Assembly: GCA_951406725.2 (NCBI GenBank)
Contig: OX597816.1
Location: forward strand, 40,920,001 to 40,984,000
DNA length: 64,000 nucleotides
Source of the DNA: Octopus vulgaris
Lineage: Eukaryota
Direction: 5' to 3'
Shown here: positions 1 to 55,335 of the stretch, piece after piece
Numbering within the stretch: position 1 is the stretch's first letter
How the letters are laid out: the number at the start of each line of letters is the position of its first letter
Translations under genes and position numbers: made by a program
Notes under the pieces: generated by a model
What the model saw: the letters and a program-made list of their open reading frames with translations, nothing else
The model's database searches: none
What the model was told of the DNA's origin: nothing

Positions 1-262
1 CAAAGGGAAGCCATCATTTCCGTCTTCAACCTATGATAGACATGGACTCGAGTTTAAATATAGTAAATCCCCCACAAAACACGAAGAACAAACACAAGAA
101 AAAATACACAACGCGAGGACGTGGTACGTGCAAAATACTCAGGGTAGGAAAGAAAGGTGGTTTTACGTTTCGAGCAATGCTATTCTTCAGAAACAAGACA
201 CAGAGGAAAGTCCAAGGGAAAAGGAAGACAGAGGGAAAAAATCGCCAACGATTCACATGTGG
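1..262 (-). mobile_element. Penelope-like terminal-repeat (pLTR) fragment with minimal hammerhead
   Basis: Similar to 17605-17800 (caagaaaaatacacaac..aggac.tgg...acgtttcgagc..gct..ttc.tcagaaaca..ggaaagtccaag). The first ~55 nt (+) resemble a decayed PLE C-terminal 'FRLQ..HGL' motif. Confidence 0.6.
160..194 (-). ncRNA. Minimal type I hammerhead ribozyme
   Basis: Minus strand: GUUU CUGAAGA au AGC auu GCU c GAAAC GUA AAAC. Stem I GUUU/AAAC, self-complementary ACGU stem III, GUA cleavage triplet. Confidence 0.65.
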
Positions 263-290
263 TTACAATTTGAACTGACCGGAAGGGTAT

Positions 291-522
291 GGGTCGAGCT
301 GGCAGAATCGTTAGCACGCCGGGCGAAATGCGTAGCCGTATTTCGTCTGCCTTTACGTTCTGAGTTCAAATTCCGCCGAGGTCGACTTTGCCTTCCATCC
401 TTTCGGGGTCGATAAATTAAGTACCAGTTACGCACTGGGTCGATGTAATCGACTTAATACCTATGTCTGTCCTTGTTTGTCCCCTCTATGTTTAGCCCCT
501 TGTGGGTAATAAAGAAATAGGT
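291..522 (+). mobile_element. tRNA-derived SINE, family C (octopus OK-SINE-like)
   Basis: A-box-like tggcagaatcgttag and B-box-like gagttcaaattcc; second copy inverted at 798-1030. Confidence 0.8.
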
Positions 523-797
523 ATGGGTAAAGAAAAGGGTCTGTCTAATGCAGGGCAGTGTAAAAGAAGGAGGTATGTTTGTGTATGTGTGCGTGTGTGC
601 GTGCACGCAAGTCTGTGTGTATGTGTATGTTTGTGTATGAGTTGTGTGTGTAGTGTTTGTGTGGTGTTTGCTATTTATACGCGTATGTGTCAGTGAACTT
701 TGTGTATCTTAATGCTGTAGGAAGAATTAAGCGGCGTGGTAACAGGAGTGGCTGTCCTTTGTGTAGTTGTGCGCTTTTCAAATGCGCACAGAGGAAT

Positions 798-1030
798 GTA
801 TTTCTTTACTGCGCACAAGGGTCTAAACATAGAGGGGACAAACAAGGACAGACAAAGGGTTTTAAGTCGATTACATCGACCCCAGTGGGAAATTGGTACT
901 TTATTTATCGACCCCGAAAGGATGAAAGGCAAAGTCGACCTCGGCGGAATTTGAACTCAGAACCTAACGACAGACGAAATACGGCTACGCATTTCGCACG
1001 GCGTGCTAAGGTTTCTGTCAGCTCGCCGGT
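798..1030 (-). mobile_element. tRNA-derived SINE, family C
   Basis: Diverged reverse complement of 291-522 (aaaggcaaagtcgacctcggcggaatttgaactcagaac). Confidence 0.8.
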
Positions 1031-1064
1031 CAGTGGAAAGGTGCTTGACTGACCATTTGAAGTA

Positions 1065-51520: not shown

Positions 51521-53277
51521 TCAAGCGTTGGCTACTACGCTAGTGACCTGATTCGGACCAGACCTCTAGATAGAGAAGGCTGGAGATAAATCCCAACCAG
51601 GTGGTCAGTCTCACGCAGGAACAGGCCCATTTAAAGCTGTAATTTAAAGGGAAGCTGGTGTGCTACTGTTTGATTGACTCACCCTCTTCCAGAAAACCTT
51701 TGATCAGTTTTTGAACGCAGGAAATGCTCGTATTGTGTTTCATCTATGGCCAACAAACTCTCTCTCTATATACATATATAGGTTCTGTGGGTCCACAGCA
51801 GATAATAAATATGCAACGCAAGCAATAACTATGACACTTCTACTTGAATTCCTTACTGTTATAATGACGCCAAAGACAGTGAACACATGTGGTCTTTACT
51901 TGTAAGACAGTTTCTGATATTGTCTAGCATGCGTTTCTGAGTCAAACACAGAGGAATCTTCGGCGCTTAGCTAGAAGTATATTAATGAGCCTACAGACGC
52001 CGTACTGATGGCATTCAAATACCATCGCGATGAAGCTTACGTTTCATCCCTTCGCGGACAATGAAATAAGCGCCAGACGAGTACTCGCATCTCATTAATC
52101 GTCTACCCAACCGCTAAAATTGCTGGCCTTGTGCGAAAATTTGGTGGATTTTCTGAAAAACTAGGGAAAACTTGCAGTGCTACTCGGAAATCCCTGTTTG
52201 GGGCTATTTCTACATACACAGAAGTGTTAAAATCCGAAAACACCCGATATGTGCACAGGGCGATGAATTCTCATGCATACGTTCACTCAACGGTTTTACA
52301 AATCAGAAGACTAAAGACGATTTTTCTCTACTTAATTTCTCTGCAAACATCTCAGTTAAAGCTTATATGAGAATACGTGGTGCTAGTTCGATAGGCCTAA
52401 TCTGTACATGCAAAAATACATAAGACTGGGCAGGAGCACTTCCTCTTAGAACTTAGTGTAATACCCATTCGGCTTATTGCATGATTACTTCCTAATGATA
52501 ACCATATTGAAACTGTTTCATTGCAAATATTTCATTTTATTACAATTTGATTTTGTTGTTCGTATCTGTGTTTTTACAATCGATTGGACAACCACACCAT
52601 TTTGTAATTCCTATTTGTAATGCAAGCCCCAAAATACCTAATTATCTCGGTGGGACAGTAATATAGATTATACCTTGTCCGAAAATATATTGCTTCTGTT
52701 TAAGTTAGAAACCGTTTTTTAATTCCCGCTAATCTTTTTCCGATTTACTTCGTCGATTGTAGATCTTCAGTGATTTTTTTTTCAACATATAAGCTACTTT
52801 ATTTTGGTTTGCTTGATAGCAGTTACGTTTCTGAGCAACGTTTAGATCACAGAAATAGAAAAGCCTATTTATAAATAGTCTCATTGATCAACAAAAAAAT
52901 TAATCGCACTCGAATAGATACTCTGTTTGTTTCCGGCGAAGATTAATCAACTGCATGGCTTATCGTTGAAATAATTTGTAAACCGGTTGAATTAGTTTTG
53001 AGGCACGAAATGAAACTGAACTTTGAATAATGTTTGGAAAAGTATATGACCATACTGTATCCGTGACATTACAAGTTTACCTCAAGAGCAAAAACCTACA
53101 CCTGATTCGGAAAGATATGGATGTAGGATTTGAAAAAGTCAGAGAGGATATCACTGAGTTCTAGTCTGTCAGAGAGACAGTTTATCTAACGGGGAGCAGA
53201 TATTGTGAGAAAATAACAAGCAGAGAAGACAGATGAGATAAGTAAAGAACCCCCTACACACTCTCACACTCTCTCTC

Positions 53278-53709
53278 TTTTTACTCTTTTACTTGTTTCA
53301 GTCATTTGACTGCGGCCATGCTGGAGCACCACCTATAGTAGAGCAAATCGACCCCAGGACTTATTCTTTGTAAGCTTTGCACTTATTCTACCGGTCTCTT
53401 TGCCGAACCGCTAAGATACGGGACGTAAACACACCGACATCTGTTGTCAAGCGATGTTGCGGGGACAAACACAGACCCTCCCCCAATATATATATGTATA
53501 TATATATATATATATATATATATATATATATATATATATATATATACGATGGGCTTCTTTCAGTATCCGTCTACCAAATCCACTCACAAGGCTCTGGTCG
53601 GCCCGAGGCTATAGTAGAAGACACTTGCCCAAAGTGCCACGCAGTGGGACTGAACCCGGAACCATGTGGTTGGTAAGCAAGCTACTTACAACACAGCCAC
53701 TCCTACGCC
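53278..53709 (-). mobile_element. SINE family A
   Basis: Reverse complement of 8962-9375. Confidence 0.9.
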
Positions 53710-54289
53710 TATAAGTTGTCTAGAAAAACTATAGTTAAAGGAATGGCATGTAAATAGGATGGCCTGCAGGTTTTTGCTGATACAGATCCTAATCGTGAAC
53801 GTAATCTAAAAATTACAAGAGGATGTAAAAATGAGCTCAGTTCCTATACTAAAGCGTCTTTGGATGATTTCACACCTTCATCTGATGGTCATGATAATGA
53901 ACTATAAGATAGATATAATCTCTCATCCAGTTAGTAACGCTCATTCCGTCACCAGCACTGAAACTATAGTCAATATCTTCTATGGCAAGAACGTACTCGT
54001 ACGATGTTATGATTTTTATTAATTTCCTACGTTTTTGTGCTTTCACGTATATGTATTGTACCGTGTATATATAGAAATAGATAATTTCATATATGAAGGT
54101 TATCATGTTTGTTCTCTTTTGTTTTCTTGTGCTACCTCTGTTCCAATAGCCCATAGGAATGCAATCTCACTTGACGTTATGAGACTCAATACGAAAATCA
54201 ATTTCACATTACTAAATTTCGCGTTACTACCAAATTTTGCGCATGTGCATTGCTTGTTTTTGATTTTGTAGACTACACAGTGTATTGAC

Positions 54290-55039
54290 AGTTGGGCACA
54301 GTCCGTGAGAAAAACAGCACCATGATGCAATTCACTCTGCTAGAAATTTGGAAATGTCATGCTGTCCTGCTTGGCATTCGCGCCGGTAGCTCCGCTAAGA
54401 ATATTTCAGAGTGCTTCGATGTCAATTTGAGGACAGTTCAATCTGAGGACGTGTACCGAAAATCATAAAAATCAAACATTCAGTCAACATCATCGGCTTT
54501 AGAGTTGTCACTAGTGATGGCGACGGTTTGCCTCCATTCATCTTTCCACACGGCCTTAGACTCAACACCGAGGCCTGCATCAAGTGGCTGGAGGAGGAAG
54601 CGCTGCCCTGGGTCTAGAAGGAGGCTGGTAGAAGACCCTATGACTGGCAACAGGACTCTGCAGCATGCTACACAAACAGGTGAGCACAGTCATGCCTGTC
54701 AAACAATTCCTGCGATCACATCACCCCTAAAATCTTGCCACCTAACTGCCCATACTGCAATAGACTTGATTATTATGTGTAACACCAAAGATGAACTGAA
54801 GGCAAAAATTATGGCAGCATTTATCACCTTTAACAAGGAGACCATCCAGAAGAGTTGTAGGAGACTCCGAAGGCGTCTGGAGACCATGGTTGAAGCCAAT
54901 GGTTATGTTATTGAATAAATTTACTCTTTAGCATTTCAAGATATTCTATGTAATTTTGGGAAATATATGTTAAAACGAGATGTCAGTGTTATTTTCATTT
55001 TTGCGTAAATTAGACGACAGTTTATTCACCGCACCTGTA
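54290..55039 (+). mobile_element. Internally deleted maT-like transposon
   Basis: PPFIFPHGLRLNTEA..KWLEE...WQQDS...NTKDELKAKIMAAF...IQKSCRRLRRRLETMVEANG; ends ttattcaccgcacctgta. Confidence 0.7.
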
Positions 55040-55187
55040 TATACATACCCACATACATATATACATAAATACAAACATACATATATACATACATACATAT
55101 ATACATACATACATACATACATACACATATATATATATGTATGTATGTATGTATGTATATATATATATATATATATATATATATATA

Positions 55188-55335
55188 TGGGGAGAATTCA
55201 CGAAACAACAAAAGACAAAGACAGGTGGTGTAAAAAACAAACAGATGTATTAGTATGGCGCTCAGGAATTGAAAAAGTCTTTTACGTTTCGAGCCTACGC
55301 TTCTTACACAGAAAGGAACACAGAAAGAAACAAAA
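55188..55335 (-). mobile_element. pLTR-like fragment with decayed minimal hammerhead (55279-55315)
   Basis: CUUU CUGUGUAAG AAGC guag GCUC GAAAC GUA AAAG; homologous to 17605-17800 and 31261-31320. Confidence 0.55.

Follow-up and report, generated by a model that had tools for sequence, protein, structure and literature searches.

Introduction

A hammerhead ribozyme is near-universal in Penelope-like elements (PLEs), though its cleavage is dispensable for insertion in vitro. The closest described systems are the minimal hammerheads of metazoan PLEs (Cervera and De la Pena 2014, PMC4209133), which combine type I topology with an extra base between positions 9 and 10.1 and a palindromic 15.2-16.2 region, occur as many families per genome and mostly as single motifs, reach thousands of copies, form opposite-strand pairs 100 to 700 bp apart, and include a U3:A8 variant. 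In this study, we analyzed 15 hammerhead-like sites in a 64,000-nucleotide stretch of the Octopus vulgaris genome (contig OX597816.1; G000:C3:40920001-40984000), here called the window, from a genome of 2.8 Gb in 227 contigs. The octopus motifs are alike in all of these respects. Unlike those published, they include a G3:C8 core fixed in a young family, a helix II of 92 nucleotides (nt) where 7 to 8 bp is termed large in the earlier work, C·A or U·U in place of the conserved G10.1-C11.1 pair in two families (D and E), and palindromes of up to 10 nt.

Three further systems are relevant. The Poseidon element PAc of Anolis carries a hammerhead in its pseudo-long terminal repeat (pLTR) whose natural C3:G8 core has been assayed (PMC11167929), whereas the families described here are known from sequence. 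The PAc hammerhead cleaved only with PLE protein and left no RNA-seq read ends at its site; cleavage was partly restored in an engineered double mutant, C3G/G8C, whose pair is the natural one in our family B. PLEs that encode an endonuclease (EN+) of the Neptune and Nematis types have a C-terminal GIY-YIG domain after a CX2-5CxxC linker, and show 5' truncation, inverted 5' arms and microsatellite targets (PMC8557442), all features shared by the parent of family B. Like the octopus elements, retrozymes unrelated to long terminal repeats (non-LTR retrozymes) are short non-coding repeats that carry a type I hammerhead and likely derive from PLEs (PMC7229834; bioRxiv 10.64898/2026.07.22.740005).

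We put at about 85% the probability that the motifs in the window are type I hammerheads at the 3' ends of dispersed repeats, that those of families A and B lie directly downstream of PLE GIY-YIG coding sequence, that families C, D, E and G are likely PLE tails, and that the motifs likely act only in the RNA of the parent element, as dimers paired through stem III and aided by PLE protein.

Results

Hammerhead motifs in the window

A first-pass annotation of the window had proposed about 14 type I hammerhead ribozyme (HHR) or HHR-derived motifs in at least five families that share one core scaffold. All 15 positions that it lists proved to be ends of type I motifs or of their decayed relatives, and they fall into six dispersed families: A (160, 17692, 31261, 55279), B (2164, 35250, 35304), C (7139, 31040), D (10217, 13703, 14559), E (31463, 33141) and G (47794) (Table 1). 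The common scaffold held for part of the set. The core (C3 U4 G5 A6 N7 G8 A9, G12 A13 A14, A15.1-U16.1 and H17) is kept at 11 of 15 sites if a 3:8 swap and U4C are allowed, and it is broken at the other four (10217, 31040, 31261 and 55279). The proposed minimal fold with a palindromic stem III is also borne out, since a palindrome replaces a capped stem at most sites and a palindrome or near-palindrome stands at stem III in all six families; the extra base after A9 occurs in A, B and E. Solo, fold-back and inverted-repeat forms are all present, as had been claimed. The inverted pairs (D, E and the B fold-back) are probably single insertions each, for about 12 events overall.

A strict canonical descriptor gave no match in the window, and one once U4C was allowed, because the extra base after A9 is absent from it. 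We refer to a relaxed descriptor that admits this PLE-type base, allows U4C, lets N3:N8 covary and tolerates a 10.1:11.1 mismatch; the extra base and 3:8 covariation are described features of PLE hammerheads (PMC4209133). It matched seven times, against shuffle means of 0.19 (global) and 0.16 (500-nt local), with a shuffle maximum of 1 and 0 of 100 shuffles reaching seven in either set. The descriptor was loosened only after the sites were known, and the genome-wide pattern controls thus weigh more: exact matches in the genome number 8,956 for the minimal A-type pattern (53 when it is reversed) and 4,735 for that of family B (control, 0). These two motif types alone bear out the high genome-wide load that had been proposed. 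Six of the seven window matches, with three helices and an open helix I, are listed sites (160, 2164, 7139, 13703, 14559 and 17692). Five sites keep the core bases and fail the descriptor, either through a damaged helix (31463, 33141, 35250 and 35304) or through a 92-nt helix II (47794). Damaged or atypical motifs thus make up 9 of the 15. Searching the window with Rfam, also suggested at the outset, returned no match at the gathering score; with an E-value threshold it matched mostly microsatellites, and no hammerhead family was among the 150 weak matches listed of 322. Standard descriptors and Rfam miss these motifs, and genome-wide hammerhead counts are therefore underestimates. The seventh relaxed match, at 3066 on the minus strand, is an unlisted AT-rich U3:A8 motif within no repeat that we saw, and it may be due to chance.

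Table 1. Hammerhead motifs and the elements that carry them in the window
Feature	Position	Strand	Description
Decayed PLE copy, 5' truncated	53..2965	-	contains a GIY-YIG remnant, a 3' region with T-rich and CA-rich sequence, and a family A hammerhead; later insertions interrupt it
Family A minimal hammerhead	160..194	-	intact core with C3 at 190; A9 followed by an extra A
GIY-YIG endonuclease remnant	2558..2911	-	tblastn with 753-aa RT+GIY-YIG PLE protein of the same genome, 32% identity, E 4e-11
Family A minimal hammerhead	17692..17726	-	intact, C3 at 17722
Decayed family A-type copy	31261..31293	-	A6 changed; TA run replaces 3' side
Decayed family A-type copy	55279..55315	-	core disrupted
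Family B insertion (3' end of second PLE)	2026..2226	-	12-bp target-site duplication at 2014-2025 and 2227-2238
Family B hammerhead	2164..2214	-	G3:C8 core (G3 at 2207), 5-bp stem II, 6-nt palindrome, 7-bp stem I
Family B fold-back	35168..35435	.	two head-to-head G3:C8 motifs: 35250-35300 minus, 35304-35353 plus
Family C hammerhead	7139..7190	+	U4C core (C3 at 7150), 3-bp stem II, 9-nt near-palindromic stem III
Decayed family C copy	31040..31100	+	GAAA lost, insertion
Decayed family D copy	10214..10260	+	G3 opposite G8, GAAA changed; aligns with subfamily L059/L064
Family D insertion	13450..14668	.	main copy on minus strand plus inverted 5'-truncated arm
Family D hammerhead	13703..13747	-	intact core with C3 at 13742; stem II base C·A; 10-nt palindrome
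Family D hammerhead, inverted arm	14559..14603	+	core intact, C3 at 14564
Family E motif	31463..31506	-	intact U4C core with C3 at 31501; stem II weak, with a U·U base and one mismatch
Family E inverted partner	33135..33175	+	6-nt deletion in stem III, helix mismatches
Family G element	47472..48420	-	about 900 bp, short inverted 5' arm
Family G hammerhead	47794..47914	-	core intact (C3 at 47909), 92-nt helix II, 8-nt palindrome, 5-bp stem I

Families A and B and their PLE parents

The putative ribozyme of family A is a textbook minimal PLE hammerhead, and site 160 is the tail of a decayed PLE. The GIY-YIG remnant in this copy, which has no Pfam match by itself, is collinear with the region of the site-160 hammerhead in 14 of 24 relatives, some of them neighboring duplicates. 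G10.1 is mutated at site 160 and a 4-nt palindrome stands for stem III. The A-type copies in the window lie 14 to 24 kb apart and differ from one another. PLE fragments near two other A copies (L097 and L125) look like neighboring insertions. A 225-bp repeat, present as two inverted copies (295-519 and 799-1025), inserted twice separately into the PLE remnant, and relatives of the remnant join across both.

Family B, with a G3:C8 core, stands in the same decayed PLE at site 2164. The adjacent GIY-YIG remnant was rejected as its parent: B inserted there later, leaving a target duplication, and it is missing from all 24 relatives of the host remnant. Among the first 100 B pattern matches listed, G3:C8 accounts for 99, G3:G8 for one and C3:G8 for none, with several loop II subfamilies. 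In 27 B copies we found an inverted arm in 10 and a TA-run 3' flank in 11; the script found eight duplications, of which those in six of the 27 copies are of 11 to 13 bp at the boundary. Both motifs of the B fold-back have mismatches in helix I or III.

The parent of B was traced through copies with a longer 5' end, which has 406 genome matches. In 6 of 30 insertions chosen for this longer end (L241/271 were dropped as rearranged and L255 because it holds the frame end only), a frame that has a CX3CxxC linker plus a GIY-YIG domain at its C-terminus is followed by the 3' region and then the B hammerhead. The frame has 14 homologues of 547 to 944 aa; one homologue was compared, and it carries a YVDD motif and can be aligned with a PLE protein with reverse transcriptase (RT) and endonuclease (EN) domains (E 3e-14). 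This suggests that B is the tail of a Neptune/Nematis-type PLE, the linker being the reason to name these two; the parent is known from partial copies, and the linker does not tell Neptune from Nematis (PMC8557442). The RT is seen for the B parent through homologues only, and the link of A to its parent is through GIY-YIG.

Two apparent tandem arrangements of B have other explanations. A 5.2-kb array that holds B was considered as tandem PLEs and rejected, as it consists of fucosyltransferase genes. In L269, two B copies lie on the same strand at 2106 and 5561, a distance of 3,455 bp; with identical flanks and no PLE frame between them, they reflect local duplication rather than a pLTR pair. 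The gene array (L031-L033, G000:C28:25039100-25068800) has a period of about 5.2 kb, encodes Glyco_transf_10 proteins, and carries a B insertion in every unit.

Families D, C, E and G

Family D provides the best structural evidence among the families. Across 27 distinct motifs, one pair of stem II is G-C in 16, A-U in 8 and mismatched in 3; one of stem I, scored in 23 motifs, is A-U in 17 and G-C in 6. A self-complementary stem III is present in 23 of the 27, in four main forms (one of 10 nt, one of 8 nt and two of 6 nt), and helix II closes with C·A in 23 of the 27. Helix covariation is clear in D and also when the families are compared with one another. Sites 13703 and 14559 are evidently the two arms of one insertion, 96% identical over 13638-13885 and 14422-14668.

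Family C, a U4C family, is mostly fold-back, with both strands represented in 18 of 30 loci, and the hammerhead at 7139 has a partial inverted arm upstream. Family E, which has U4C and a U·U as its helix II base, is old and frequently forms inverted pairs. Its core-proximal helices are 85, 85 and 99% paired; its modeled distal helix was mis-registered (35% paired), and whole-structure scores for E were set aside.

In family G, 92 nt separate A9 from G12, and many of 20 copies fold into a rod there. Of 756 cells in this long helix, 92% pair, versus 29 to 39% when the strands are slid; the base of helix II carries mismatches in the window copy. The core was read from family alignments, independently of the descriptor. 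A strict G pattern has 13 copies in the genome (control, 0), and the copies have staggered 5' ends, a common 3' end and inverted arms. PLE fragments beside two G copies (L169 and L171) look like neighboring insertions; in L171 a microsatellite lies between the match and G, and the match is absent from other G copies.

Copy number, age and predicted folding

A first look at the genome gave 2,762 candidates for A, 1,819 for B, 1,139 for D, 909 for C, 326 for E and 100 for G. Among the 40 candidates scored per family, the best non-self identity is 97 to 98% for B and 73 to 82% for E, and the families are therefore of different age. Across 170 family loci, same-strand copies never exceed two, and opposite-strand pairs are frequent (both strands in 18 of 30 C loci, as above, and in 8 of 30 B loci). 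Same-strand tandems were not found in the window, nor arrays of three or more in the 170 loci.

The same relaxed descriptor found 19 matches in 334,400 bases of flanks of other loci, equivalent to 3.6 per 64 kb (reversed control, 1). The seven matches in the window are about twice this density (Poisson tail of about 0.08, worked by hand), and the sampled flanks adjoin repeats, include one partner copy and may exceed the genome mean. The hammerhead load is a genome-wide property and the window is no special locus; calling it dense was an overstatement. At least 39% of the window, which is 35% G+C and has many microsatellites, matches other fetched loci or simple repeats. No host exon was found in a Pfam search of 145 non-repeat frames of at least 55 aa, which gave three weak matches below the cut-off; this is compatible with a long intron.

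In folding predictions, A-type monomers lack helix I (probability of at most 0.02) and the B monomer forms helices I and II (0.92 and 0.99). A dimer of the 13703 motif is predicted to adopt a double-hammerhead fold at -44.3 kcal/mol, versus -34.6 kcal/mol for two monomers; predicted dimers of the other five folded motifs did not adopt it. The B fold-back is predicted to form a 124-bp hairpin of -196 kcal/mol.

Discussion

The linkage of A and B to GIY-YIG coding sequence bears out, for these two families, the PLE origin that the first-pass annotation proposed. For C, D, E and G, such an origin is inferred from insertion anatomy: 5' truncation, inverted arms and microsatellite targets are present as in EN+ PLEs, and truncation, inverted arms and target duplications fit PLE insertion. 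The repeats end at fixed positions on the 3' side, and their 5' ends vary. The window motifs are independent insertions of different ages rather than the single system that had been envisaged; neither their density nor their range of forms (solo, inverted and fold-back) goes beyond ordinary PLE debris.

What we observe fits a model in which the hammerhead would act in partially tandem transcripts of the parent element as a protein-assisted dimer. Two copies may pair via the stem III palindrome of their family and cleave with the help of PLE protein. Reverse transcription would begin near the 3' end and mostly stop early, and the short hammerhead tail would therefore be over-represented. Selection would act on master lineages and not on single copies, most genomic copies being presumably inert and decaying. 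An inverted copy places both orientations within a single transcript. Fold-back copies, if transcribed, would yield long double-stranded RNA rather than ribozymes, and each is predicted to be masked by its own antisense arm.

Several points weigh against this model. Cleavage is dispensable for insertion of the lizard PLE in vitro (PMC11167929). Among the B-parent homologues, Pfam RVT_1 was below the cut-off (1/6), and one tblastn-matched B locus (L021) lies outside the linked set. C, D, E and G had no linked coding frame within about 1.5 kb (20 to 30 loci each, two PLE query proteins), and tblastn with the two proteins gave no match in C, D or E loci. The D motifs were selected with a near-core pattern and are related, and their compensatory changes may stem from few events; covariation in the long helix of G is not above that of shuffles (279/500). 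Conservation of the core relative to matched sequence, which had been proposed as a check, held in the pool and less evenly in single families: over five families, variation in core columns is 0.53 times that of columns matched for base and CpG (pooled p 0.0008, among copies that are top BLAST matches and not independent), and the difference is significant singly in two of five, E and the site-160 family (p 0.13, 0.009, 0.16, 0.18 and 0.034). A Fisher test for shared changes in core columns reached significance in none of the five.

It is hardly credible that a loose pattern matched these motifs by chance in sequence rich in repeats. The strict descriptor and Rfam came up empty and the relaxed descriptor was chosen post hoc, as this explanation would have it, but no shuffle reaches the observed count, the reversed patterns are nearly or wholly empty genome wide (53 vs 8,956 and 0 vs 4,735), palindromes and stems change together in D, and the G core came from alignments. 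We also consider it very unlikely that the elements are non-LTR retrozymes, that is, tandem non-coding units that are cut by their hammerheads and ligated into circular RNAs. Such elements are known in molluscs (PMC7229834), their proposed derivation is from PLE pLTRs (bioRxiv 10.64898/2026.07.22.740005), and here too type I hammerheads sit within short non-coding repeats, with two same-strand copies at a few loci. Retrozymes, however, form head-to-tail arrays that yield circles (PMC7229834), whereas the octopus elements are solo or inverted: the tandem and array counts given above, the identity of the sole 5.2-kb array with B as a gene array, and the continuation of A and B into PLE coding sequence all speak against retrozyme status and the release of circular RNA that had been suggested.

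The first-pass annotation further raised the cutting of host pre-mRNA. In its fuller form, intronic solo copies, dimerized in trans or activated through PLE protein, would add a layer of regulation by cutting pre-mRNA. The very large copy numbers, the six intact motifs in the window, the helices predicted for the B monomer and the weak excess of core conservation could be taken to point this way. We rate this as highly improbable: no host exon emerged from the 145 candidate frames (long introns being compatible with that), 9 of 15 motifs are damaged or atypical, the motifs are predicted to need a dimer partner, single PLE minimal hammerheads did not cleave in published tests (PMC4209133), and the lizard hammerhead required protein and left no read ends at its site (PMC11167929). 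A broader proposal, in which the G3:C8 core and the 92-nt helix II would be active, C:G, G:C and U:A cores would run in parallel PLE lineages, and the family-specific palindromes would be a self-recognition code letting thousands of solo copies pair and cut host pre-mRNA in the presence of PLE protein, is very unlikely as a whole because of its host-cutting part. The chances that G3:C8 is an unreported natural variant that is also active may be near even. A further alternative holds that the fold is kept as a signal for RNA dimerization or protein binding, with family-specific palindromes, and that catalysis is vestigial. Each family has its own self-complementary stem III, retained through length changes in D; catalysis is dispensable for insertion in vitro (PMC11167929); and rate-lowering variants (G3:C8, U4C, and C·A or U·U at 10.1:11.1) are fixed family wide. 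Against it, a pair of importance to catalysis, 3:8 (PMC8495972), stays Watson-Crick in three forms, C:G, G:C (99 of the first 100 B matches listed) and U:A. We regard vestigial catalysis as unlikely, and it can coexist with the dimer model preferred here.

Much of what we describe is already published, namely high-copy PLE hammerheads, opposite-strand pairs and U3:A8 (PMC4209133) and natural U4C and U·U (PMC3088659). What appears unusual is the G3:C8 core in 4,735 genomic copies, the 92-nt helix II and the C·A base of helix II. Natural variants described by Perreault et al. (2011, PMC3088659) include a covarying U3:A8 pair, U4C and mismatched U10.1·U11.1; the text of its section on variants, Figure 5 and supplements aside, does not name G3:C8 as natural. 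G3:C8 occurs as an engineered variant (PMC3884650, PMC11167929 and PMC8495972), and no natural case was found in the searchable literature, with supplements and a 2016 study of dimer-cleaving PLE variants outside its scope. Priority for G3:C8 is thus uncertain. Our literature search found no paper on cephalopod hammerheads, and the available text of an octopus repeat annotation (PMC13282606) has no mention of hammerheads. In the octopus, a young lineage has the engineered "rescue" pair G3:C8 fixed in about 4,700 copies spread over several loop subfamilies, and it coexists with lineages of U3:A8 and C3:G8 type, which argues that the catalytic pair is under selection. These three Watson-Crick 3:8 pairs, found in separate lineages, make ready natural test substrates.

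Other PLEs and repeats in and near the window

A young PLE with many intact 753-aa RT+GIY-YIG frames (L206:2709-4967, L177-L209) is present in near-identical copies, and its GIY-YIG region has 20,629 genome candidates. Its 3' region holds a U3:A8 hammerhead-like motif with an ambiguous cleavage triplet; this PLE was rejected as the parent of any of the six families. In L208 and L209, a 367- to 380-aa open frame lies upstream, and a truncated copy of this PLE lies at L035:2836-3543. L035, just downstream of the window, also holds an RT frame of the long interspersed element type at 5418-7734 (RVT_1, E 5e-31).

More hammerhead families lie outside the window, in the flanks of L022, L083, L148, L162, L185 and L213 and at L206:605-965. 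Among them are U3:A8 cores (twice on one strand in L022) and a family with an 8-nt palindrome in which A·G or A·A forms the helix II base. L189 holds a relative of C with the canonical U4, and a fold-back with U4C is related to D.

Within the window, a 380-bp dispersed repeat, possibly a short interspersed element, occurs at 11703-12076, 17364-17503, 40043-40428, 42695-43076 and 51135-51520; three copies are 95 to 97% identical, and no hammerhead was found within it. Further palindromes lie at 36412-36472 and 55617-55753, and a long mixed trinucleotide tract spans 15700-16100. A 400-bp repeat (8547-9355, 14946-15350, 22310-22699, 53282-53713, 61116-61306 and 62226-62618) is repeatedly interrupted by a microsatellite at the same place.

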